Shown here: positions 49,779-63,892 of the stretch, in pieces
Position numbering within the stretch: the first letter of the stretch is position 1
Layout of the letters: each line of letters opens with the position of its first letter
Assembly (NCBI GenBank): GCA_041844735.1
Contig: JBGZBP010000008.1
Location: forward strand, 14,133-78,132
Length of the DNA: 64,000 bases
Direction: 5' to 3'
Source of the DNA: Bacillota bacterium
GTDB lineage: Bacteria > Bacillota > Clostridia > Peptostreptococcales > Anaerovoracaceae
Program-made: the position numbers and the translations under genes
Notes under the pieces: model-generated
What the model was told of the DNA's origin: nothing
What the model saw: the letters and a program-made list of their open reading frames with translations, nothing else
Database searches by the model: none

Positions 49779-50609
49779 ATGCGAGATAAGAAACATTATT
49801 CGATAGGTGAAGTGAGTGAAATATGCAATGTTACCAGAAAGGCATTGAGATTTTACGATAAAATCGGCATGATTGTGCCGGATGAGGTTGGAGAAAACAA
49901 CTACAGATATTATTCAAGACAAACCCTTTTGGAAGTTCCTATAATTAAATATTATAAACAAATGGGATTCAGGCTGGAAGAAATGAAAAAACTCATAAGC
50001 GGAAGTGATTATGAGGAATTGGAACGCAGCTTCAGAAGCAAAATGGATGAACTGAACGAGCTTGAAAAAGAAATATTGATACAAAAGACATCTGTTAGAG
50101 ACTGGTACAATCTAATCCTTGAGGCCGAGGGGGTAATAAAGCATAGGGTAACGGAGGTTTCAATAAAATACGTGGAACCTGTTAAGTGCTGTGCCATGGA
50201 TTATGATTTTAATTATTCTTATATGGAGGCGATTATCAATATAGATTTTACCAATTTTGTTGAAAAGATCAATAATGCTATAACAGGACCTGTAATGATG
50301 GTTTTTCCAAACCTGGCGGAGCATATGAACGGAAAAGCAAAGAAAGTAAAGGTTATACAAAAAACATTGGAGCCTGCGAGTGAAGATGTGACACATACTA
50401 TCGAGGGAGGTATGTATGCAAGTTGTTACCATATAGGGACGCATAAGAATATTAATGAAACATATGATAAAATTATTACATGGCTGTTGCAGAACAACTA
50501 CGAATATGAAAATTGCTCCATAGAGAGATATGTTACTGATTTTTGGAGCACGAGATTTGAGGAAAACTTCGTTACGGAGATTTTTCTCAAAGTATCAAGA
50601 AATAAATAA
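49779..50609 (+). CDS. MerR-family transcriptional regulator with C-terminal GyrI-like (BmrR/effector-binding) domain
   Basis: YSIGEVSEICNVTRKALRFYDKIG HTH, coiled-coil dimerisation helix, and a C-terminal domain of about 150 aa ending ..TEIFLKV. Confidence 0.85.
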   Translation: MRDKKHYSIGEVSEICNVTRKALRFYDKIGMIVPDEVGENNYRYYSRQTLLEVPIIKYYKQMGFRLEEMKKLISGSDYEELERSFRSKMDELNELEKEILIQKTSVRDWYNLILEAEGVIKHRVTEVSIKYVEPVKCCAMDYDFNYSYMEAIINIDFTNFVEKINNAITGPVMMVFPNLAEHMNGKAKKVKVIQKTLEPASEDVTHTIEGGMYASCYHIGTHKNINETYDKIITWLLQNNYEYENCSIERYVTDFWSTRFEENFVTEIFLKVSRNK

Positions 50610-51228: not shown

Positions 51229-51260
51229 TTGACATTACCCTCAAGGTTAATATGTATAAT
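51229..51260 (+). promoter_or_regulatory. Promoter-like element P2: TTGACA, 20 nt, TATAAT (TG dinucleotide directly abutting the -10 hexamer)
   Basis: Perfect -35 (51229-51234) and -10 (51255-51260) hexamers with a 20-bp spacer, about 45 nt upstream of the permease start codon. Confidence 0.35.
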
Positions 51261-51305
51261 ATATATGAACTATTTTATATTAATTTTATTATGGAGGGTT
51301 TAGAA

Positions 51306-52376
51306 ATGAATCAAGAAAAGACAGCTTTACAGGCTAAAGCGAAACTTCAGAGCAGTTTCTTGAAAAAGGGTGTAACAGTTGCAATCCTTTCAGGAATGTG
51401 TTACGGAATGTATTCGGCATTTCTATATGTCGGTACATCAAAAGGAATTTGGGCTGATTGGTATTCAGGAGCAATAGCTTTACCGGCAGCGGCAACAGTG
51501 TACTTATTGGGTTCAATGGGTAGTGCTATCAACGACACTGCATCAGGTATATGGTGTCTTATTATTGCAGCAATCAAAGGTAAATTGGGTGACTATTTCA
51601 GAACATTGAAGACAAAACCGGGTCACATTATGATTTTTGCCGCATTGGTTGGAGGTCCGGTAGCATCCACTGCATATGTAGTTGCATTCAAAATGGCAGG
51701 ATCCATCATTATTCCTATTACCGCTCTTTGTCCGGCTATAGGAGCTATACTTGGAAGAATATTGTATAAGCAGCGTTTGAATGTAAGAATGCTTATAGGT
51801 ATAGCTGTCTGCATAGGTTCAAGTATTCTTATCGGAAGCCAGAGTATAGGTGCGGATAACGGAGATGATATCATGCTTGGATGTCTTATCGCATTGATTG
51901 CAGCTTTCGGTTGGGGATTTGAAGGATGTGTAGCAGGTCACGGTACTATGCTTATTGATTATGAAATCGGTATTACAATCCGTCAGATTACATCCGGTCT
52001 TTCAAATTTAATTATTCTTGTTCCTATTTTCGGTATGCTTACAGGAGTGGGTGCAGGAGCAGCTTTCGGATTGGTAGGAGATGCTATCACTTCAAGTGCT
52101 ATTATTTATTTCATAATTTCAGGTTTCTTTGCAGTATATGCTTACAGTCTATGGTACAAAGGAAATTCAATGTGCGGAGCGGCATTGGGTATGGCTTGTA
52201 ACGGAATGTACTCTTTCTGGGGTCCGTTATTCACATGGATAGTTGGAGGTCTTGCATTCGGTATAGACGGATTGAACCTTGCAACAAGATCATGGGTAGG
52301 AGCTGTGACTATGGCTATCGGTATCTTTATTATCGCAGTTAATCCGGCAGAATTTTTCAAGAAAAAGGAGGCATAA
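51306..52376 (+). CDS. Polytopic (about 10 TM) permease with an internal two-fold repeat, DMT/EamA-like (tentative); candidate substrate importer for the cut microcompartment
   Basis: Start at the ATG 7 nt after GGAGGG. About 10 hydrophobic segments with similar halves. It is the first gene of the BMC locus. Confidence 0.65.
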   Translation: MNQEKTALQAKAKLQSSFLKKGVTVAILSGMCYGMYSAFLYVGTSKGIWADWYSGAIALPAAATVYLLGSMGSAINDTASGIWCLIIAAIKGKLGDYFRTLKTKPGHIMIFAALVGGPVASTAYVVAFKMAGSIIIPITALCPAIGAILGRILYKQRLNVRMLIGIAVCIGSSILIGSQSIGADNGDDIMLGCLIALIAAFGWGFEGCVAGHGTMLIDYEIGITIRQITSGLSNLIILVPIFGMLTGVGAGAAFGLVGDAITSSAIIYFIISGFFAVYAYSLWYKGNSMCGAALGMACNGMYSFWGPLFTWIVGGLAFGIDGLNLATRSWVGAVTMAIGIFIIAVNPAEFFKKKEA

Positions 52377-52379
52377 AAA

Positions 52380-52646
52380 ATGAAACAGCCATTAAATTAT
52401 GCAATTTTAAAATATTTTACTCAGGTTGAAGAGGCTTGTGCTGATGATGTTATTAATGCACTTAAAAATGATTATGGTCACTACAGACCGTTTAAAAAAG
52501 CGGCAGTTGTAGAAGCTCTTATGACAGCTGAAAGTAATGCTGTGCTTCATGAAACGAGATTTGACCTTGATGATAACGGTGACATTAGAGTTTATTATGG
52601 GGCGAGCGAAGAAGAGAGAGCAACAATAAATTATTATATCAAATAG
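52380..52646 (+). CDS. Hypothetical 88-aa soluble protein, coupled to the permease gene
   Basis: ATG lies 3 nt after the permease stop. Acidic and non-membrane. I recognise no family. Confidence 0.5.
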   Translation: MKQPLNYAILKYFTQVEEACADDVINALKNDYGHYRPFKKAAVVEALMTAESNAVLHETRFDLDDNGDIRVYYGASEEERATINYYIK

Positions 52647-52696
52647 ATTATTTTAAGTTATAGTTGAATTTTAAAGAAAGAAATGGAGGTCATGAG

Positions 52697-52993
52697 ATGA
52701 GGTATTATGGCGAAGAGGCTCTTGGGCTTGTTGAAACCATAGGTATGGTTCCGGCACTTGAGGCTTGTGACAAAATGCTTAAGGCCGCAGATGTGGAGTT
52801 GATTTCGTACGAGAATATCGGATCGACTTTGGTAACAATCATGGTCAAAGGTGATGTGGCAGCTGTAAAATCATCTGTGAAAGCAGGTGCTGAAGCAGCG
52901 GCAGCTATAGGTACTTTGACCGCATCAAATGTAATGCCACGTCCGATTGCCGGAGTAGGCGATATAGTATCGGTACATGATATTGATGCTTAA
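52697..52993 (+). CDS. BMC-H shell protein (PduA/EutM-like hexamer)
   Basis: EALGLVETIGMVPALEACDKMLKAADVEL...GDVAAVKSSVKAG is a canonical Pfam00936-type BMC domain. ATG follows GGAGG. Confidence 0.9.
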   Translation: MRYYGEEALGLVETIGMVPALEACDKMLKAADVELISYENIGSTLVTIMVKGDVAAVKSSVKAGAEAAAAIGTLTASNVMPRPIAGVGDIVSVHDIDA

Positions 52994-53017: not shown

Positions 53018-53326
53018 ATGAGCAGAGTAAGTAGCGAAGCGCTTGGATTAATCGAAACCTTTGGTCTGGTATTTGTACTTGAAGCTTGCGATGCCATGTG
53101 CAAAGCAGCGGATGTTGAGTTGGTAGGCTATGAGAATGTTGCTTCAGGATACATTTCGGTACTGGTAAGAGGGGACGTAGGTGCATGTAAGACAGCAGTA
53201 AATGCAGGTGTAGCAGCAGTAGAGGCTATGGGCGCAACAGTGTACAGTCATGTAGTTATTGCAAGACCTCATGCTGATTTAGAAAAAATCACGGACAGAT
53301 ATACACTTGACAAGTTGCTGCCTTAA
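53018..53326 (+). CDS. BMC-H shell protein (second paralogue)
   Basis: EALGLIETFGLVFVLEACDAMCKAADVELVGYE...GDVGACKTAVNAG. Confidence 0.9.
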   Translation: MSRVSSEALGLIETFGLVFVLEACDAMCKAADVELVGYENVASGYISVLVRGDVGACKTAVNAGVAAVEAMGATVYSHVVIARPHADLEKITDRYTLDKLLP

Positions 53327-53354: not shown

Positions 53355-54716
53355 ATGAATATTATTGATAATGATTTGCTCTCCGTACAGGAAGCCAGAA
53401 TACTGGCAGAAAACGCACGGGAGGCTCAGAAAATTTTGGCTGATTTTTCTCAAGCAAGACTTGATAAAATCGTTGATGCTGTCGCCGATGAGATGAGCAG
53501 TAAAGCCCGTGAGCTTGCAGTGATGTCCTTTGAAGAGACCGATTACGGCAGATGGGAAGACAAGTGCGTGAAGAACAAATTCGCCAGCGAGTTTTTAAAA
53601 AATAAGTTAAGGGGAATGAAGTGTGTCGGAATTATAAATGAAGACAGAGAAAACAGCACGTGGGATGTCGGGGTACCCAGGGGAATGATAGTTTCCGTGG
53701 TGCCGTCCACCAGCCCGGTTTCCACAACTATATACAACACATTGATCTCTATTAAGTCGGGTAATGCCATTGTTTTTTCACCCAATGTAAGGGCTGTGAA
53801 ATCAGTGGCATATGCCCTTGATTTAATGATAGAGGTAGGGGAAAGATTCGGGTTGCCGCAGGGAGCCATATCCTATTTAAAAACGGTAACGAAGGCCGGC
53901 ACGGTGGAACTGATGAACCACTCGGCTTGCGGTCTGATAATGATAACAGGTGTACCCGGAATACTGGAAGATGCATATAGGACACAAAAGCCTGTGATTT
54001 ATGGAGGAACGGGTAACGGACCTGCATTCATCGAAAGAACAGCAAATATACAGCAGGCAGTGAGGGATATTGTTGACAGCAAGAGCTTTGATTATGGCAT
54101 AGTGCCATCGGCCGAACATTCTATTGTGGTGGAAGGCTGTATATTGGAGCAAGTGAAAAAAGCTCTTATCGGTGAAGGATGTTACTTTATGACGTCCGAT
54201 GAGGCTCAGAGCTTAGGAAAACTTTTCTACAATCCGGATAATACTCCGAACATTGAAATGATAGGAAAGTCACCACAAGTATTAGCAAGAAGGGCAGGGT
54301 TTACGGTTGGAGATAATATAAGACTTCTTATTGCGGAAGAAAAATATGTTTCCATATATAACCCATATTCTAAAGAAAAATTGGGTCCGGTATTGTCTTT
54401 ATATATTGAAGACGACTGGCAACATGCTTGTGAAAAGTGCATAGAATTATTGGTAACAGAGAAGAATGGGCATACTATGACTGTTCATTCAAATGATAAG
54501 GAAGTCATAAGACAGTTTGCATTGAAAAAACCGGTGGGAAGGGTTTTGGTAAATACACCGGCTGCATTCGGCAGTGTCGGTTGGACTACGAATCTGTTCC
54601 CGGCTCTGACATTGGGTAGCGGTTCTTCCGGGAGAGGAATGACTTCCGATAATGTATCACCGGAAAATCTGATTTATATAAGAAAAGTAGGCTTCGGTGT
54701 GAGAGACCTTATTTAA
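53355..54716 (+). CDS. cutB: AdhE-N/EutE-type aldehyde dehydrogenase paralogue lacking the catalytic cysteine (CutB-like position upstream of cutC)
   Basis: Colinear with the AdhE N-terminal ALDH domain (DKCVKNKFASEF, VPSTSPVST, FSPNVRAV, GTGNGPAFIERTAN, TLGSGSSG). The nucleophile motif FDNGxxCASEQS reads FDYGIVPSAEHS. Confidence 0.8.
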   Translation: MNIIDNDLLSVQEARILAENAREAQKILADFSQARLDKIVDAVADEMSSKARELAVMSFEETDYGRWEDKCVKNKFASEFLKNKLRGMKCVGIINEDRENSTWDVGVPRGMIVSVVPSTSPVSTTIYNTLISIKSGNAIVFSPNVRAVKSVAYALDLMIEVGERFGLPQGAISYLKTVTKAGTVELMNHSACGLIMITGVPGILEDAYRTQKPVIYGGTGNGPAFIERTANIQQAVRDIVDSKSFDYGIVPSAEHSIVVEGCILEQVKKALIGEGCYFMTSDEAQSLGKLFYNPDNTPNIEMIGKSPQVLARRAGFTVGDNIRLLIAEEKYVSIYNPYSKEKLGPVLSLYIEDDWQHACEKCIELLVTEKNGHTMTVHSNDKEVIRQFALKKPVGRVLVNTPAAFGSVGWTTNLFPALTLGSGSSGRGMTSDNVSPENLIYIRKVGFGVRDLI

Positions 54717-54782
54717 AGCACTAAGGAACAAACAAATAATTCGTTATCGCTAATGTTATTTCATGATTGAGAGGTAAGTATT

Positions 54783-57341
54783 TTGGATATTCGTGAATTT
54801 TCAAACAAACTTGCAGAGGCATCTAAGAACATGTCTGAAGAGGAACGTCAGGCACTGGGAAAGATGTTTGAAACTGTAACAAAGGGAATGTCAAACGACG
54901 GACAGACATTTAACACTCCTGTGGCACCGGCTGACAATGTTGCTGCCGAAGGCACAGATATTCCTGAGGGAATAACACAGAGATTATATAATCTGAAACA
55001 GAACTTCTTAAAACAGGTTCCAACTATTACAACACACCGTGCAAGAGCAATTACTAAAATCGCTCAGGAAAATCCGGGAATGCCGAAGATTATTTTGAGA
55101 GCTAAGTGCTTTAAGTATTGCTGTGAAACTGCACCGCTTGTAATTCAGGATGATGAGCTTATTGTAGGAGCACCTTGCGGAGCACCTAGAGCAGGAGCTT
55201 TTTCACCGGATATTGCTTGGAAATGGATGGTGGACGAGCTTGATACTATAGGTACAAGACCGCAGGATCCGTTCTTTATCTCGGACGAAGATAAAAGAAT
55301 AATGAGAGAGGAATTATTTCCATACTGGGCAGGTAAGTCGGTAGACGAATATTGTGAAGACCAGTATAAAGAAGCCGGAGTTTGGGAACTTTCAGGAGAA
55401 TCATTCGTTTCCGATTGTTCGTACCACGCACAAAACGGTGGTGGTGACTCAAATCCGGGATATGGCGTGATTTTGATGGAAAAGGGTATGTTGGATATCC
55501 AGAATGAAGCTAAGGAGCATTTGGCTCAGTTGGATTATGAAAACCCTGAAGATATAGATAAGATTTATTTTTACAAAGCAGTAATTGATACTACAGAGGG
55601 TGTAATGATTTACTCTCAGAGAATGGCAAACTATGCTTTAGAGTTGGCTGCAAAGGAAATGAATCCTAAGAGAAAAGCTGAACTACAGCAGATTGCTGAA
55701 AACTGTGCATGGGCACCGGCTCATAAACCGAGAACATTCTGGGAAGCAGTGCAGGCGGTATTTACAATAGAGTCTTTGCTTGTAGTTGAGGAAAATCAGA
55801 CAGGAATGTCAATAGGAAGAGTGGACCAGTATATGTACCCGTTCTTCAAGGCTGATTTGGAGTCGGGCAGAATGAACAACTTCCAGGCTTTTGAAATCGC
55901 AGGATGTATGTTGATTAAGATGTCTGAAATGATGTGGGTAACAAGTGAGGGAGCATCAAAGTTCTTCGCAGGTTACCAGCCGTTTGTAAACATGTGTATA
56001 GGTGGTGTTACAAGAGAGGGTAGAGATGCTACAAATGATTTGACGTATCTGTTAATGGATGCTGTTAGACATGTCAGAATCTATCAGCCTTCACTTGCTT
56101 GTAGAATACACAATAAATCACCACAGAAATATATGAAGAAAATCGTTGATGTTGTACGTTCAGGTATGGGATTCCCTGCTTGTCACTTTGATGATACACA
56201 CATAAAAATGATGTTGGCTAAGGGTGTATCTGTTGAAGATGCAAGAGACTATTGTTTGATGGGTTGCGTAGAGCCTCAGGTAGCCGGAAAAATGTATCAG
56301 TGGACGTCAACTGCATATACACAGTGGCCGATTGCCATTGAATTGACACTTAACCGCGGAGTGCCTCTATGGTATGGTAAGCAGGTAACACCTGATATGG
56401 GAGATCTTTCAAGCTTCAAGACATTTGAGCAGTTTGAAAAGGCGGTAAAAGATCAGATTTACTACATAACAAAGTGGACATCGGTTGCAACAGTAATATC
56501 TCAGAGAGTACACAGAGAATTGGCACCTAAGCCTTTGATGTCAATCATGTATAAGGGATGTATGGAAAACGGTAGAGGTGTTGAGTCCGGCGGAGCTATG
56601 TATAACTATGGACCGGGTGTTGTTTGGTCAGGTCTTGCTACATATGCCGATTCTATGGCGGCAATTAAAAAGTTGGTATTCGATGATAAGAAATATACTT
56701 TAGAACAGCTGAACGAGGGTCTTAAAGCGGATTTCGTGGGATATGAACAGATGAAAGCAGACTGCTTGAATGCTCCTAAGTTCGGTAATGATGATGACTA
56801 TGCGGATGATATCGCAGCGGATATTATCCAGTACACAGAGCATATTCATAGAGAATTTAAGACATTATATTCAAGATTGTGCCACGGTACACTTTCAATC
56901 TCAAACAATACACCGTTCGGTCAGCTGACAGGAGCAAGTGCCAACGGAAGAGCTGCATGGTCTCCATTATCAGACGGTATCAGTCCTACTCAGGGTGCGG
57001 ATTTCAAGGGTCCTACAGCTATCATCAAGTCGATATCGAAACTTTCAAATGATAACATGAACTTGGGTATGGTACATAACTTTAAGCTTATGAGCGGACT
57101 TCTTGATACGCCTGAAGGAGAGAACGGTCTTATCACTCTTCTAAGAACAGCTTGTCTGTACGGAAACGGTGAGATGCAGTTTAACTACCTTGATAACAAC
57201 ACTCTTCTTGAAGCTCAGAAGCATCCTGAACAGTATAAGGATCTGGTAGTTCGTGTAGCGGGATACAGTGCATTCTTCGTAGAACTTTGTGAAGATGTAC
57301 AGAACGAAATAATCAGTAGAACGATGTTAACCAAATTCTAA
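54783..57341 (+). CDS. cutC: Choline trimethylamine-lyase (glycyl radical enzyme) with N-terminal BMC-targeting extension
   Basis: Glycyl radical motif [10 protein letters not shown] (G827), thiyl loop MGCVEPQ (C495/E497), FAGYQPF, and the D222/Y214/F401/T508/Y512 set matching CutC choline-site residues. TTG start lies 8 nt after GAGAGG. Confidence 0.88.
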
Positions 57342-57398: not shown

Positions 57399-58349
57399 AT
57401 GACAAATAAAAATTCAGATATCTTGCAGAGAAAAGCATTAATCTTTAATGTCCAGAAATATAATACTTTTGACGGACCGGGTGTTAGAACTTTAGTGTTT
57501 TTTAAAGGGTGTCCACTGAGATGTAAATGGTGTGCAAACCCGGAAGGACTGGAAAGAAAATATCAGGTCATGTTTAAAACTAACAATTGTATCAACTGCG
57601 GTGCATGCGTGGCTGTTTGTCCTGTAGGAATTCATAAGATGGATGAGGAAGGAAACCACGTCATCAATAGACAGATTAACTGCATAGGATGTAGAGAATG
57701 TCAGGAAGCCTGTCTTACGAATGCACTTAATATCATGGGTGAAGAGAAGACTATTTCCGAAATCCTTGATATTATAGAAGAGGATAGAGAGTTTTATGAT
57801 GTATCAGGCGGCGGAGTAACTCTTGGGGGAGGAGAAGTGCTGGCACAGCACGATGCAGCCAAGAGTTTGCTTATGGCATGCAAACAAGCAGGAATCAACA
57901 CGGCTATAGAAACATCAGGCTATACTAAAAAAGAAAATATTTTGGAAATTGCCGATTATGTAGATTTATTCCTGTTTGATATAAAGCACATGAACCCTGA
58001 AAGACATATAGAACTTACAGGAGTTAATAATGAGGTGATACTCGAGAATCTCAAGACTCTGTTGTCAAAAAGATATAACGTGCATATCAGAATGCCTATG
58101 CTGAAAGGTATTAATGACAGTGATGAAGAGTTGGAGGCGGTTGTTAAGTTTTTGATGCCGTTTAAGGATTACAAGAATTTTAAAGGTATAGACTTGTTGC
58201 CTTATCATAAAATGGGTGTAGGTAAATATGTCCAGCTTGATAAGGAATACCCTATCGAAGGAGATCCCAGCCTGTCCGAGGAGGATTTATCAAGGATAGA
58301 GGGTATTGTTAAAAGTTATGATTTCCCTGTAAATGTGGTCAGACATTAG
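57399..58349 (+). CDS. cutD: Glycyl-radical enzyme activating enzyme (radical SAM) for CutC
   Basis: CPLRCKWCANPE radical-SAM CX3CX2C plus two ferredoxin-like motifs (CINCGACVAVCP, CIGCRECQEAC). It lies directly downstream of the GRE gene. Confidence 0.9.
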   Translation: MTNKNSDILQRKALIFNVQKYNTFDGPGVRTLVFFKGCPLRCKWCANPEGLERKYQVMFKTNNCINCGACVAVCPVGIHKMDEEGNHVINRQINCIGCRECQEACLTNALNIMGEEKTISEILDIIEEDREFYDVSGGGVTLGGGEVLAQHDAAKSLLMACKQAGINTAIETSGYTKKENILEIADYVDLFLFDIKHMNPERHIELTGVNNEVILENLKTLLSKRYNVHIRMPMLKGINDSDEELEAVVKFLMPFKDYKNFKGIDLLPYHKMGVGKYVQLDKEYPIEGDPSLSEEDLSRIEGIVKSYDFPVNVVRH

Positions 58350-58361
58350 TATGGAGTGTAG

Positions 58362-58724
58362 GTGGTAAAAATGGGAATATTACATGAAGAAGCAACAGGA
58401 AGAATAATACAGGAATCGGTGCCCGGAAAGCAGGTCACCATTGCACATGTGATAGCGGCTCCGACACACGATATCTATGAGAGATTGGGTATTGATGACA
58501 AGGGAGCTATAGGGATTTTGACACTTTCTCCTTATGAAACGGCTATTATAGCAGCGGATATTGCAACCAAGGCAGCGGAAGTTCAAGTAGGATTCTTGGA
58601 TCGTTTCACAGGTTCCGTGGTAATAACCGGTGATGTTCAAAGTGTGGAAACCGCTTTGACGCAGGTTACAGAGAAGCTCTGTGATATTTTAGGATTTGCA
58701 ACATCGGAAATTACAAGAACATGA
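58362..58724 (+). CDS. Circularly permuted BMC shell protein (PduU/EutS-like)
   Basis: [21 protein letters not shown]...[24 protein letters not shown]...[20 protein letters not shown]. The start is either GTG 58362 or ATG 58371. Confidence 0.85.
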
Positions 58725-59164
58725 GAAAGAAGAGAATTATGATAATAGGTCCAAGCGGTTCAGGAAAAACCACCATAGCAAATATGCTTAATGATTATGA
58801 TGGACCTTTAAGAAAAACACAGGATACGATATATGGGGAACGGACATTGGACGTACCGAGCTCATATCTGGAAATTCCATGGATGTACATGCACATGATT
58901 TCTTTGGCACAGGATGCATCTCACTTGCTAATCCTTGTGGATCAGTCAAGATGTGTAGACAAATATTCACCGAATTTGGCGAAAGCATTCAGAATACCGG
59001 TAATAGGGGTAATAACGAAATGTGATTTAAATCCTGAAAATGAGCAGAAATGTATAGATACTTTAAAAAGAATCGGTGTGGACGAACCATATATCAAATT
59101 GAGTATACCTAACGGTATAGGAATAGAGGAGCTTAAGGCTCGTTTATTCGGGGAAAATCTCTAA
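58721..59164 (+). CDS. EutP/PduV-family small GTPase
   Basis: [13 protein letters not shown]-loop, ...ITKCDL. Length 147 aa. ATGA overlap with the preceding gene. Confidence 0.85.
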
Positions 59165-59181: not shown

Positions 59182-59847
59182 ATGAAGTTTATAACAGAAG
59201 ATGAGTTGAGAACTTGTTACCGAAAAGAACCTTTTACCAGCTATCAGTTAGATGACGGGGTAAAACTTACTCCGGGCGCCAGACAGTTCTTGCAGGATAG
59301 AGGCATACTTATGTTTCAGGGAAGCAAGAGCAGTATATCAAATAAGGTGTCATCATCCCCAGAAGGAACTACTGTTAAGGAATCGGAATGCGACATTTTA
59401 AAGAAAAAGCTTTTCATTAAAGTAAAATATGTTGAACTGAAATTTCTTCAAGCAACCGGACAATTATTGAAAAGTGATGTTAAAGCAGCAGAATCACTGA
59501 GTGATTTGAGGAGAAAATTGTCTGAAATTAAAGAGGTGGCTGTGAAGGATGATGTGGCATTTGAAGCTAAATTAAGCACGCATGGAAGTGTGAGTGGAGA
59601 GAAATCTCAGGAGCTTGATATAACGGAATTGCATATTCAGTTAGAGAAAGGCGAACAAATACTTCTGTTTAGCGAATTGAAGCTTTTATTGGAAGAATTA
59701 TTAATAAGTGTTCCATGCTATTTTGGAGAAGATGCAGCAGAACAGAAAAGATGCTCGAAAGTTTCCGCCGTAATAGAGCAGATCATGAATGAGCTTTCAG
59801 GAATGATTTTTGCAGCATATGGAGGTAATGTATGTCAGAGAAAGTAG
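59182..59847 (+). CDS. BMC-locus protein of uncertain function; it resembles the Firmicute 'EutT/cobalamin adenosyltransferase-like' helical-bundle proteins
   Basis: The N-terminal MKFITEDELRTCYRKEPFTSYQLDDGVKLTPGARQFLQDRGI module recurs in eut/pdu-locus proteins. The C-terminal half is helical. Assignment is from memory only. Confidence 0.35.
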   Translation: MKFITEDELRTCYRKEPFTSYQLDDGVKLTPGARQFLQDRGILMFQGSKSSISNKVSSSPEGTTVKESECDILKKKLFIKVKYVELKFLQATGQLLKSDVKAAESLSDLRRKLSEIKEVAVKDDVAFEAKLSTHGSVSGEKSQELDITELHIQLEKGEQILLFSELKLLLEELLISVPCYFGEDAAEQKRCSKVSAVIEQIMNELSGMIFAAYGGNVCQRK

Positions 59848-60674
59848 TAGATTTCAGCTATTGTGACAAATTGGTTGAAGACTTTGAAAAAGTTATAAAA
59901 GACCCGATAGTAGAGAAGTCAAAGCAATACTATACAGGTGTCGACCTGGGTACAGCATGTGTAGTATTGGCAGTTCTTGATGACAACAAAAGACCTGTAG
60001 CAGGTGCTTACAGATATGCAGATGTAGTTAAAGACGGAATGGTAGTTGACTACATAGGTGCGGTAAACATTGTTAGAGAGCTTAAAGAGCAAATTGAAGA
60101 AAAGCTGGGTGTGGAGTTGGAATTGGCAGCAGCAGCTATCCCGCCGGGAACAGATGAACTGGATTCCGGAGCGATAAAGAATGTTGTTCAAGGTGCAGGA
60201 TTCATGTTGACAAACCTTTTGGATGAACCGACTGCAGCAAATGAGGTTCTTAAGATTAAGAACGGTGCAGTGGTTGATATAGGAGGAGGCACGACAGGAA
60301 TATCAATATTAAAAGATGGTGAAGTAATCTTTGTTGATGACGAACCGACAGGCGGTACGCATTTTTCACTTGTTGTATCCGGAGCTTATAAAATGCCTTT
60401 TAATGAGGCGGAGCTGTACAAGAGAAATGAGGATAACCACAAGGAACTTTTGCCGGTATTGAAACCGGTAATAGAAAAGGTTGCGGCTATTATCAAGAAT
60501 AGTGCCGAAGGATATAATGTTGATGCTATTTCACTTGTAGGCGGTACGGCATGCCTTACAGGTATAGAGGGTATTATTGAAAAATGGACAGGATTTCCGA
60601 CATATAAGCCGATAAATCCTATGTTCGTTACACCTCTGGGCATCGCATTAAGTTGTAAAGATGAAGAAATGTAG
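59832..60674 (+). CDS. eutJ: EutJ-like actin/Hsp70-fold chaperone
   Basis: YTGVDLGTACVVLAVLD, VVDIGGGTTGISIL, SLVGGTACLTG ATPase-fold motifs. Length 280 aa. Confidence 0.85.
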   Translation: MSEKVVDFSYCDKLVEDFEKVIKDPIVEKSKQYYTGVDLGTACVVLAVLDDNKRPVAGAYRYADVVKDGMVVDYIGAVNIVRELKEQIEEKLGVELELAAAAIPPGTDELDSGAIKNVVQGAGFMLTNLLDEPTAANEVLKIKNGAVVDIGGGTTGISILKDGEVIFVDDEPTGGTHFSLVVSGAYKMPFNEAELYKRNEDNHKELLPVLKPVIEKVAAIIKNSAEGYNVDAISLVGGTACLTGIEGIIEKWTGFPTYKPINPMFVTPLGIALSCKDEEM

Positions 60675-60686
60675 AGGGTGGTAATT

Positions 60687-60983
60687 ATGGATTTTAGAAT
60701 TATAAAATCTCCATCACGGGGAACCATAGATATACTTGCCAGGAGAAAAGGTTCCGGCAAATCAATGGACATTGACTGCATCGACGCAATCGGCTTAGTT
60801 CAAGGAAAAATGATAGAAATGGTGGTAGCAGCGGATATTGCGGAAAAAGCAGTGGGAGTGACAGTTGAAGACATAAGAGGAAGCTGTCCTCAAAATATGA
60901 TTCTTTTAGCGATATTCGGTGATACAGCCTCTGTAGAATCGGCTATCAAAGAGATTAAACAGAAAATTAGGGAGGAAATTTAA
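60687..60983 (+). CDS. Permuted BMC shell protein with a pore-loop cysteine (GrpU-like candidate Fe-S shell protein)
   Basis: RIIKSPSRGTIDIL...AIGLVQGKMIEMVVAADIAEKA...IRGSCPQNMILLAIFGDTASVESAI parallels the PduU/EutS order but carries a GSCPQ loop. ATG at 60687 follows GAGGGTGG. Confidence 0.6.
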   Translation: MDFRIIKSPSRGTIDILARRKGSGKSMDIDCIDAIGLVQGKMIEMVVAADIAEKAVGVTVEDIRGSCPQNMILLAIFGDTASVESAIKEIKQKIREEI

Positions 60984-60984
60984 A

Positions 60985-61248
60985 ATGTTAACGGCTAGAA
61001 TAATTGATAATATATGGTCAACACGAAAAGTTGAAGCCCTAAACGGAATGAAGTTGATGCTTGCAGAGGTGATAGGAGGAGCCAATGCCGGAGAGAGAAT
61101 TGTGGCGGTTGACACAATAAGTGCCGGACGAGGCGACAGGGTGATTGTATGTACAGGTTCTTCAGCTAGAAGAATGCTTATGGATGATACCTTGCCGGTA
61201 GACGCAGTGGTAGTCGGGATTATAGATGAGGACTGCGAAATAGTTTAG
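60985..61248 (+). CDS. eutN: BMC-P pentameric vertex protein (EutN/PduN/CcmL family)
   Basis: MLTARIIDNIWSTRKVEALNGMKLMLAEVI...VAVDTISAGRGDRVIV. Length 87 aa. Confidence 0.9.
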   Translation: MLTARIIDNIWSTRKVEALNGMKLMLAEVIGGANAGERIVAVDTISAGRGDRVIVCTGSSARRMLMDDTLPVDAVVVGIIDEDCEIV

Positions 61249-61268: not shown

Positions 61269-62597
61269 ATGCAGCTTCTGGATCAAATAAAAGAAGGTGG
61301 TATTATCGGTGCCGGCGGAGCAGGATTTCCAACCCATGCAAAACTGGCAGGCGAAGCGGAGTTCATTTTGATGAACGGTGCTGAGTGCGAACCACTGTTA
61401 AGAGTTGACCAGCAGTTAATGGAATTTATGCCTGATGAAATTATCCAAGGCTTCGCAGCTGCAGGAAAGATTGTTAAGGCTAAACGTGCCATTATCGGAA
61501 TAAAGAAAAAACATGGCAGAGTTATAGAAATATTACGTGAAAGAATTAATGCATTAGGATATGGAGATTTCGTTTCGGTAGGTGAGCTGCCTGATATTTA
61601 TCCGGCAGGAGACGAACAGGTGTTGGTGTATGAACTTACAGGAAGAGTGGTGCCTGAGACAGGCATTCCTATAATGGTGGGATGTGTTGTGGTTAACAGT
61701 GAAACATCGTTGAACATATACAGAGCTATGAATGGAAAACCTGTAACTGAAACATATGTAACACTCGCAGGTGATATACCTAACAGAGTAACCTTTAAAG
61801 TGCCTGTAGGGACACCTATAATAGATGTTTTGAAACAAAGCGGTGTTGATAATTTGGAAGACTATGCGGTGATTGACGGCGGTCCTATGATGGGACCTGT
61901 AATGCCTGAGATTGGCGGATATATGACAAAAAAGCAGAAGGGCTTTGTGCTTTTGAAGAAGAATCACCCGTTGATTAAGAAGAAGACTGCAACCATGCAG
62001 CAGGCTGTAAGGGTAAACAGAGGTGCATGTGAACAATGCAGAATGTGTACGGATCTTTGTCCAAGATACTTACTGGGACATGATATGCAGCCGCATAAAA
62101 TGATGAGGGCTATGACATATAATTTTGGTGACAGTGAGGGGCAGAGAATAGCACAGCTTTGTTGCCAATGTGGATTATGTGAATTTTTCTCATGTCCTGC
62201 AGGACTTTTTCCGAAGCAAGCAAATATGTTCTTTAAGGCAAAACAGATGGAAAATGGTGAAAAGTACCAAAAAAAATATGAAGTTTTCGAGGCAAGAAGC
62301 GCCAGAGAATATAGACTGGTTCCAAGCAAGAGACTTATTGTAAGACTGGGACTTAAAGACTTTGACAAGCCGGCTCCCATGGAGGCTATAGAGTTGAGAC
62401 CCGATGTTGTAAAAATCAGGCTCAGTCAACATGTTGGAGCACCTGCTGAACCTATAGTGTCAGTGGGAAGCATGGTGACGGAGGGTCAAATGATAGGCAA
62501 GATTCCCGAGGGGGCACTTGGAGCACCTATACATGCAAGTATATCAGGAAGAGTTGAAGAGGTCGCAGACGGCTATATCACAATAAGGAGGAACTAG
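61269..62597 (+). CDS. pduS: PduS/RnfC-like flavin and Fe-S oxidoreductase
   Basis: GIIGAGGAGFPTHAKL nucleotide-binding motif, SLBB region, and two 4Fe-4S motifs (CEQCRMCTDLCP, CCQCGLCEFFSCP). Confidence 0.8.
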   Translation: MQLLDQIKEGGIIGAGGAGFPTHAKLAGEAEFILMNGAECEPLLRVDQQLMEFMPDEIIQGFAAAGKIVKAKRAIIGIKKKHGRVIEILRERINALGYGDFVSVGELPDIYPAGDEQVLVYELTGRVVPETGIPIMVGCVVVNSETSLNIYRAMNGKPVTETYVTLAGDIPNRVTFKVPVGTPIIDVLKQSGVDNLEDYAVIDGGPMMGPVMPEIGGYMTKKQKGFVLLKKNHPLIKKKTATMQQAVRVNRGACEQCRMCTDLCPRYLLGHDMQPHKMMRAMTYNFGDSEGQRIAQLCCQCGLCEFFSCPAGLFPKQANMFFKAKQMENGEKYQKKYEVFEARSAREYRLVPSKRLIVRLGLKDFDKPAPMEAIELRPDVVKIRLSQHVGAPAEPIVSVGSMVTEGQMIGKIPEGALGAPIHASISGRVEEVADGYITIRRN

Positions 62598-62598
62598 T

Positions 62599-63147
62599 AT
62601 GGCTAAGGCAATAGGAATGGTTGAATTTGTGAGCATTGCTCGTGGCATATATGTTGCCGACCAGATGGTGAAAATCGCAGATGTTGAAATCGTAACATCT
62701 ACATCAACTTGCCCCGGTAAATATATTACTATAGTGCATGGTGATGTGGCAGCTGTTGAGACATCAGTGGCAATGGGCGAGAAGCTTGCAGGTGAATATT
62801 TTGTTGATTCTATAGTTATTGCAAATGTACATCCGGGAGTCTTTCCGGCAATTACGGGATCGTGTATACCGGACAGCATACAGGCAATAGGTGTTGTAGA
62901 GTCATTTGCAATGTCGACTATGATAATAGCGGCTGATGCGATATTAAAGGCAGCAGAGCTTGAATCAATAGAATTAAGACTGGGTAACGGTTTGGGTGGA
63001 AAGGCTTTCTTCGTTTTCACGGGAGATGTTGCGGCGGTTGAAACCGGAGTGGAAGCAGGAAAGAAAATAGCCGTGGAGAAAGGATTGTTGGTAGATACTG
63101 AGGTGATTCCTTCTCCGTCAGAGCTTGTAATTCCATCTTTATTATAA
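62599..63147 (+). CDS. pduT: BMC-T tandem-domain shell protein (PduT-like, pore Cys38)
   Basis: Two BMC domains in 182 aa. The first carries TSTSTCPGKY, with Cys at residue 38 as in the PduT 4Fe-4S pore site. Confidence 0.85.
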   Translation: MAKAIGMVEFVSIARGIYVADQMVKIADVEIVTSTSTCPGKYITIVHGDVAAVETSVAMGEKLAGEYFVDSIVIANVHPGVFPAITGSCIPDSIQAIGVVESFAMSTMIIAADAILKAAELESIELRLGNGLGGKAFFVFTGDVAAVETGVEAGKKIAVEKGLLVDTEVIPSPSELVIPSLL

Positions 63148-63196: not shown

Positions 63197-63892
63197 ATGA
63201 AGAGATTGATTTGTGCGAAAGAAGTTGAAGAAGCTTGCAAAAGTGGGAAAAAGTCAATTTACATTGATGCTGATACGTTAATTACACCGTCTGCAAAGGA
63301 TGAGGCGGCAAGTTTGGGCGTAGAATTTGTTGAAGGTGATTGTTGTTGCCAGGGTAACACGGTGCAAAATACGGCTACAACTCCGTCAGCAGCGTGTTCT
63401 TCAGGAGATAACAAGGGTTTGGACAGCGACATGATATATAAGGCTTTACAGGCTATGCTTGCAAAGGGTCTTATTGACGGATCCAGCTTTGAAGGAGGAT
63501 GTGCAGTATCAGGAGATGCACCTTATGCAGCTGATTCACATTGCAACGGATTGAAAGTGGTTAAGGGCGGCAGTGTTAGAATGGATGAGTTTGATACAGG
63601 CAATCCTAATGCTAAAGTCAGCTATCAGGAGTTGGTTCACAAAGAGGAAAGCCAGATGAGTGCAGGGTTCCTTGTGATAGACAATTCATCGTTTGAATGG
63701 GGACTTACATATGACGAAATCGACTATGTAATAGAAGGAACCGTTGTAGTAACAATTGACGGAAAACCTTACACAGCTAAGGCAGGGGACGTACTGTTCG
63801 TACCTAAGGGATCAAACGTTGTTTGGGGCTCTCCGGATAAGGCTAGGATATTCTATACAACTTATCCTGCTAACTGGCCGGATTTATTATAA
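63197..63892 (+). CDS. eutQ: EutQ-like cupin protein with N-terminal LITPSAKD module and Cys-rich linker
   Basis: C-terminal cupin (IDYVIEGTVVVTIDGKPYTAKAGDVLFVPKGSNVVW). N-terminal ..DADTLITPSAKDEAASLGVEF. Confidence 0.7.
   Translation: MKRLICAKEVEEACKSGKKSIYIDADTLITPSAKDEAASLGVEFVEGDCCCQGNTVQNTATTPSAACSSGDNKGLDSDMIYKALQAMLAKGLIDGSSFEGGCAVSGDAPYAADSHCNGLKVVKGGSVRMDEFDTGNPNAKVSYQELVHKEESQMSAGFLVIDNSSFEWGLTYDEIDYVIEGTVVVTIDGKPYTAKAGDVLFVPKGSNVVWGSPDKARIFYTTYPANWPDLL

Follow-up and report, generated by a model that had tools for sequence, protein, structure and literature searches.

Why should a bacterium keep, in the middle of a choline-utilisation locus, a protein with the fold of an aldehyde dehydrogenase (ALDH) that has lost its catalytic cysteine? 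The question is raised by a 64,000-nucleotide stretch of DNA from a Bacillota bacterium (contig JBGZBP010000008.1), referred to below as the window, in which cutB, the gene for a protein designated P0001, lies immediately upstream of cutC, the gene for a choline trimethylamine-lyase-type glycyl radical enzyme. P0001 is very probably CutB, the catalytically dead second ALDH of type I cut or GRM1 choline-utilisation microcompartment loci, and CutB is maintained by purifying selection. These microcompartments produce trimethylamine, a compound from gut and oral microbes that is linked to disease, and CutB is among the most conserved of their components without an assigned function.

The absence of the cysteine, and its interpretation as the mark of a pseudoenzyme, are already published, from 2014-2015 onward. 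Axen et al. (2014; PMC4207490) described the second ALDH of GRM1 loci as having Ser or Pro instead of Cys, considered it likely to be non-functional and proposed a role as a scaffold or regulator. The available text of Martinez-del Campo et al. (2015; PMC4453576) names the gene cutB and regards its product as likely non-functional by inference, the enzyme assayed there being CutF and not CutB. Sutter et al. (2021; PMC8217296) marked a “putatively inactive second copy” in both GRM1A and GRM1B, and P0001 belongs to exactly this class (the ‘putatively inactive second AldDh’ of PMC4207490 and PMC8217296), with no difference in kind. According to PMC4453576, CutB of the type I cut clusters of Desulfovibrio desulfuricans and D. 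alaskensis G20 is likewise an ALDH paralogue that adjoins cutC and lacks the catalytic Cys, and it too has an active CutF alongside, in a locus of about 20 genes with shell genes, cutD and an EutP-like GTPase. Compared with that CutB, P0001 has Pro, comes from an oral-metagenome metagenome-assembled genome (MAG) and is without the C-terminal encapsulation peptide. The loss of this peptide is the sole new feature of P0001, and a minor one; otherwise P0001 repeats the published observation. What is added to the published class is the occurrence of Thr, Ala and Val variants, codons that are all of the form NCN, a mixed pattern of pocket conservation and a natural tail-less allele. The last three of these additions, together with the prevalence of Pro in the deep clade, may help in the design of experiments on what CutB binds and on the need for it in assembly.

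The nucleophile position of CutB

The sequence-only reading of the window described an intact protein of 453 residues that is homologous throughout to EutE/AdhE-type ALDHs, and Pfam, TIGR02518 and the phmmer alignments all agree with that description. The reading frame is open across 53355-54716 on the plus strand. Its product matches Pfam Aldedh (E 1e-20), and the NCBIfam model that fits it best is TIGR02518 (acetaldehyde dehydrogenase, acetylating; EutH_ACDH), with a score of 534.1 bits that lies under the curated equivalog cut-off of 620.1. Among PDB sequences, phmmer aligns residues 1-452 to 3K9D from Listeria (E 3e-131, 48% identity), and full-length alignments are obtained also to Geobacillus 5J78 and Clostridium thermocellum AdhE 8UHW. 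P0001 is homologous over its full length to the ALDHs of type I bacterial microcompartments (BMC; EUT2/GRM1 type, TIGR02518 / IPR013357), represented by 3K9D, 5J78 and CutF, from which it differs in having no Cys, Ser for the Asn of TNPT, Val in the glycine-rich loop and Ser for the Cys of TLGCG.

In these alignments, Pro251, encoded by CCA, lies directly beneath the catalytic Cys of 3K9D, 5J78 and 8UHW (FDNGTICASEQS versus FDYGIVPSAEHS), just as had been read from the DNA, and no alternative cysteine is aligned at the nucleophile position. The motif readings put forward along with it, STSPVST, SPNVRAV, ITGVPGIL and GTGNGPAFIERTAN, are all present in the translation. The last of these had been taken for a degenerate motif, but the Cys-bearing 3K9D reads GPGNGPAFIERSAN, so that GTGNGPAFIERTAN is normal for the subfamily. 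SPNVRAV was read correctly, but its substitutions H144N and P145V are confined to P0001, P0002 and P0003, and SPHPR is kept in 116-117 of the 120 closest CutB homologues.

Pro251 does not stem from an artefact: an independent Logan assembly of an oral metagenome run (X1) has no differences over 53355-54900 at a depth of 12, and contigs from a second sample (X2) span the Pro codon and differ only by three synonymous third-position changes. No homologue found exceeds 84% identity to P0001, which is the sole member of its 90%-identity protein cluster and shares 48-68% identity with genome-derived relatives (for example those of Desulfovibrio-type loci).

The loss of Cys is clade-wide. In the 120 closest homologues (63-84% identity), residue 251 is Ser in 110, Pro in five and Ala in five, and in none is it Cys. 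An exhaustive search of representatives clustered at 50% identity gave 152 aligned rows, of which 37 carry Pro at this position and 98 carry Cys. When 119 full-length rows are used for a FastTree phylogeny, with the residue-251 site left out, P0001 falls in a clade of 33 rows, all non-Cys, with a Shimodaira-Hasegawa-like (not bootstrap) support of 100, and CutF is found among the Cys-bearing rows. Pro is the majority state at position 251 in this deep clade, and Val variants also exist. In 80 loci of species-representative genomes (L008-L087), the residue is Ser in 54, Pro in 14, Thr in four, Ala in four and Cys in four. Since orthologues without Cys are so widespread and the independent assembly reproduces the sequence, neither a strain-specific mutation nor a sequencing error, the two explanations that the sequence-only reading had left standing against itself, is the cause.

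The codons at position 251 in all 76 non-Cys loci are of the form NCN (TCN 54, CCN 14, ACN 4 and GCN 4), and Ser is never encoded by AGY, a pattern that suggests a single ancestral TGY-to-TCY step followed by first-position drift among small residues. A cutB-position ALDH with the catalytic Cys (FDNG..C..EQS) and a long tail is found in Helcococcus (L074), Veillonella (L076 and L078) and Serratia (L087); the slot upstream of cutC is not always filled by a dead paralogue.

A check for purifying selection had been proposed, and a conserved slot immediately upstream of cutC had been noted; both features are observed. Compared with its syntenic counterpart in L006 (83% identical in amino acids), cutB has a proportion of nonsynonymous differences (pN) of 0.106 and a proportion of synonymous differences (pS) of 0.79, these proportions being reported instead of the ratio of substitution rates (dN/dS) because dS is saturated. 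Neighbouring genes give similar values, with pN/pS of 0.082/0.825 for CutD and 0.114/0.83 for the MerR regulator. The cutC gene is downstream of cutB on the same strand in all 77 loci with enough sequence, and within 171 nucleotides (nt) in 66 of them.

The former active site and the C-terminal tail

The residues of the former pocket behave differently at two depths of the family. The deeper comparison starts from 80 Cys-bearing representatives, a set selected for Cys at the nucleophile position (80/80), in which 72 columns reach at least 85% conservation; the Cys-less clade keeps 22 of these columns, relaxes 29 and changes 21. The changed positions include K73/N74, residues A197, T198, G200, V204, A207 and Y208 of the glycine-rich loop, G216/V217 and Cys422 of TLGCG. 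At four of the loop positions, A197, T198, G200 and V204, the active group shows 94-100% conservation. Asn120 of TNPT (58%), Glu341 (67%) and His373 (76%) are relaxed, and Pro251 (91%) and Glu254 (100%) are conserved. Judged from its spacing to Cys, position 120 would be the site of the oxyanion-hole Asn, and residues 197-204 probably form the dinucleotide-binding loop. The Cys-less clade also has invariant or near-invariant residues of its own: F225, E227, Y331, E352, W355, C359, E360, K361, C362, K392 and V394.

In the 120-member sub-clade that holds P0001, the pocket is near-invariant at K70, K73, N74, T119, S120, P121, T124, T198 and G199, and likewise at V200, N221, D246, G248, E254, E341, H373, T374 and S422. 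Position 120 is Ser in 113 of these 120 close homologues and V200 is invariant, but residue 251 varies more than any other pocket position. In the sub-clade of P0001, therefore, the nucleophile is dispensable and the pocket is not free to drift. The roles ascribed to the retained Glu341 and His373-Thr374 are taken from a study of PduP (PMC5311937).

The sequence-only reading overlooked that P0001 falls about 44 residues short of the length of its orthologues. These have about 496 residues, and in them ...VG(Y/F)GVR is followed by about 25-30 linker residues and then by an amphipathic helix, such as IQMLHSILKKAIEAIQ. Such tails, of 30-80 residues ending in the helix, match the C-terminal encapsulation peptide that characterises the type I BMC ALDHs. 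An amphipathic tail is present in 28 of the 33 clade representatives and in 76 of the 79 loci where the gene is complete, as well as in the closest relatives, P0002 (83% identical) on three contigs with identical gene order (L005-L007). P0001 ends three residues past alignment position 450, without the linker of the orthologues and without their peptide. A DNA alignment to the syntenic orthologues leaves two gaps in the window, one of about 98 and one of about 11 nt (about 109 nt in all), and the remnant of the peptide, TTATTTAAAGCACTAAGGAAC, which is out of frame, encodes LFKALRN where the orthologue has LYKLLKD.

The tail-less form appears to be a real natural allele. Short contigs from two other studies (X11 and X14) have the same TAA with flanks identical at 17 of 19 positions, just upstream of cutC; these contigs show only 30-41 nt upstream of the stop, and the junction of body and scar is confirmed only in X1, probably the source sample. 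The full-tail form (...LQETLKEQK*) is found in runs X11, X21 and X22, so that both forms occur in public oral-type metagenomes. A scan of metagenome contigs for the junction pattern gave two chance matches, to unrelated sequence only. An assembly artefact is an unlikely source of the short C-terminus, as the X1 assembly is identical and the stop context recurs in X11 and X14. A programmed +1 frameshift at CTT-ATT-TAA into the peptide remnant was considered and rejected: the X11/X14 allele has a TAG in the shifted frame after five codons, and the site lacks a convincing slippery sequence or Shine-Dalgarno element. The tail is also absent in only two others of the 80 loci, L016 (a Vallitalea MAG) and L060, which end five and 12 residues past position 450; its loss is rare but recurrent. 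At columns that are at least 95% conserved, P0001 has five private changes against three to four in its full-length sisters, which is no excess and gives no sign of relaxed constraint or decay after the loss of the tail.

Possible roles of CutB

Since CutB is without the thiol nucleophile and the TNPT Asn and has an altered loop, the Cys-bearing CutF is the candidate for the acetaldehyde-to-acetyl-CoA step. A search of the 1.25-Mb MAG places the gene for CutF (577 residues; L002 1501-3234) about 0.5 kb beyond the end of the window, about 10 kb downstream of cutB, and it is followed by a PduL phosphotransacylase gene. CutF is 39% identical to CutB, carries the Cys motif FDNGTICASEQS as well as TNPTST, ATGGPGMV and TLGCG, and has a long C-terminal linker with a terminal amphipathic encapsulation peptide, LNQLQDMVNELVKALKGE. 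From these motifs, it is apparently competent for the reaction.

CutB itself may well be a subunit of the microcompartment core that has no catalytic function and serves as a structural element or adaptor, tying the cargo (CutC and/or CutF) to the shell; this is the role tentatively preferred here. An ALDH-type oligomer of CutB would normally display several C-terminal encapsulation peptides, and could bridge shell and cargo through its clade-specific conserved residues. A defunct fold of a cargo enzyme is likewise retained in the gamma-carbonic-anhydrase-like domain of CcmM in beta-carboxysomes, where the organisation of cargo has been shown, and in the inactive N-terminal extension of GRM2 CutC, which resembles a glycyl radical enzyme and is a proposed cargo organiser (PMC4207490, PMC6325248); the folds of both are unrelated to that of CutB, and the likeness is by analogy only. 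The tail-less allele implies that CutB either piggy-backs into the compartment on a partner with its own peptide, if packaging is kept in this strain, or has lost part of a role, a loss that the strain tolerates. Regarding the broader proposal of the sequence-only reading, that a non-catalytic ALDH-fold protein has been retained, the outcomes favour a pseudoenzyme, while its suggestion of NAD or CoA binding meets mixed evidence, the glycine-rich loop being decayed in the deep clade and the pocket near-invariant in the sub-clade.

Several points weigh against the adaptor role. The literature up to 2026 yielded no biochemical or genetic test of CutB function, and the scaffold role is inference only. 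The AlphaFold2 model of P0001, built on a 43-sequence alignment, is poor (predicted local distance difference test score, pLDDT, 68.5; predicted template modelling score, pTM, 0.53; about 25 in pLDDT over the C-terminal 60 residues) and lends no structural support; its top Foldseek match is 3K9D with a template modelling score of only 0.49, and the model was not used for residue-level arguments. The peptide has been lost without relaxed constraint on the body of the protein, which means that it is not indispensable and weakens a simple scaffold model based on multivalent peptides. Finally, the near-invariant pocket of the sub-clade would agree with continued binding of a ligand no less well than with a role in structure alone.

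That last point leads to an alternative with a modest chance of being correct, in which CutB binds CoA, acetyl-CoA, NAD(H) or acetaldehyde without catalysis and serves as a sensor, pairs allosterically with CutC or CutF, or buffers cofactors in the shell. Across the 120 closest homologues, conservation reaches 94-100% at nearly every position of the former pocket, with the greatest variation at residue 251, and P0001 keeps Glu341 and His373-Thr374, whose counterparts act on cofactors in PduP-type enzymes. However, the deep Cys-less clade alters K73/N74 and the glycine-rich loop and relaxes E341 and H373, Val200 replaces a loop Gly that is 94% conserved in active enzymes, and residues of the pocket lie at a domain interface, where they may be conserved merely for folding. 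It is unlikely, though conceivable, that CutB is a partner-docking or ligand- or redox-sensing subunit for which its own peptide is dispensable because it enters the compartment bound to CutC or CutF. The working surface would then comprise E352, W355, C359, K361, C362 and K392 together with the remodelled, near-invariant pocket, and the tail-less allele would give the first indication that targeting can be uncoupled from function. Mixed oligomers with CutF, by which CutB would tune the activity or packaging of CutF, seem decidedly unlikely: the two proteins are paralogues of one oligomeric family that always occur in the same type of locus, and a tail-less CutB could be packaged through the peptide of CutF, but it is to cutC, not cutF, that cutB is linked in all 77 loci.

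Residual catalysis by CutB, either through another nucleophile or by direct transfer (for example of hydride from a hemithioacetal that CoA forms in solution, or by acyl transfer that depends on Ser), is highly improbable. In its favour, Ser occupies position 251 in most close homologues, His373 is kept, and the cysteines C359 and C362 persist in 94-100% of the clade representatives. Yet position 251 accepts Pro, Ala, Thr and Val alike, so that a side-chain nucleophile is dispensable there; the dinucleotide loop is altered or decayed, and the helix with C359 and C362, about 110 residues downstream, would by analogy with other ALDH structures be outside the active site. Least probable of all, with scarcely any chance, is that cutB is a decaying pseudogene or that its Pro codon or its short C-terminus is an assembly error. 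The C-terminal deletion is out of frame and P0001 stands alone at 90% identity, but the reading frame is intact, pN is far under pS, the differences between strains are synonymous, the private changes are counted as no more than those of the full-length sisters, the independent assembly reproduces the sequence, and the stop context is found again in X11 and X14.

The locus around cutB

The features of cutB and of the genes around it are collected in the table below. Together these genes form a complete GRM1 or type I cut locus. Nearly all of the 80 loci share the order BMC-H, BMC-H, CutB, CutC, CutD, and the cutC product of the window is 92% identical to its syntenic orthologue.

Table. Coordinates, in the window, of cutB, of its diagnostic residues and of the neighbouring genes
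Feature	Position	Strand	Remarks
MerR/GyrI-like regulator	49779-50609	+	Shared with syntenic relatives
EamA-like permease	51252-52376	+	Shared with syntenic relatives
Conserved 88-residue open reading frame (ORF)	52380-52646	+	Shared with syntenic relatives
Two BMC-H shell genes	52664-52993, 53018-53326	+	Directly upstream of cutB
cutB (P0001), ALDH-fold paralogue without catalytic Cys	53355..54716	+	453 residues; C-terminus truncated relative to orthologues of about 496 residues
Codon 120, Ser replaces Asn of TNPT motif	53712..53714	+	Asn in 94% of Cys-bearing representatives
Residues 197-204, ITGVPGIL replaces glycine-rich loop ATGGPGMV	53943..53966	+	
Codon 251, CCA (Pro), replaces nucleophilic Cys	54105..54107	+	Alignments to solved enzymes; also covered by X2 contig
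Glu341, retained	54375..54377	+	Probable counterpart, by spacing, of the nicotinamide-ribose-binding Glu of PduP-type enzymes
Cys359-Glu-Lys-Cys362	54429..54440	+	Within the clade-specific conserved stretch E352, W355, C359, K361, C362
His373-Thr374, retained	54471..54476	+	Probable counterpart, by spacing, of the general-base His-Thr pair of acylating ALDHs
Deletion scar	54708..54739	+	DNA for linker and encapsulation peptide (about 109 nt) missing; peptide remnant out of frame after TAA stop
cutC, choline trimethylamine-lyase-type glycyl radical enzyme	54783..57341	+	TTG start, 852 residues; PFL-like (E 4e-239) and Gly_radical
cutD, glycyl-radical activating enzyme	57399..58349	+	Radical SAM, ferredoxin-like insert
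BMC shell gene	58362-58724	+	
PduV/EutP GTPase	58721-59164	+	
221-residue ORF, unknown	59182-59847	+	
EutJ-like	59832-60674	+	
GrpU-type BMC-H	60678-60983	+	Pore motif GSCPQN
EutN BMC-P	60985-61248	+	
PduS-like flavoprotein	61269-62597	+	
PduT-like BMC-T	62599-63147	+	CPGKY motif
EutQ	63197-63892	+	

In 11 loci (L021, L026, L028, L029, L044-L047, L050, L074 and L081), the gap between cutB and cutC is wider, at about 1.2-1.4 kb, and in the three that were inspected (L021, L044 and L074) it holds a gene for an iron-type alcohol dehydrogenase (CutO-like). In the window, the GrpU-type BMC-H, PduS-like and PduT-like proteins occur together in one locus. The GSCPQN and CPGKY motifs follow the definitions in PMC6325248; according to a 2019 review, PduS and PduT are found in only about one quarter of GRM1 loci.

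Two small proteins of the locus have no Pfam match. One, the 88-residue ORF that separates the permease gene from the first shell gene, shares 86% identity with its counterparts in the syntenic relatives and, with a pN of 0.069 and a pS of 0.77, is apparently under purifying selection. The position of the 221-residue ORF is conserved in relatives (217 residues in L005), and at the N-terminus it is similar to the corresponding segment of the EutQ-like protein at 63197 (…ITPSAKD/LTPGARQ…).

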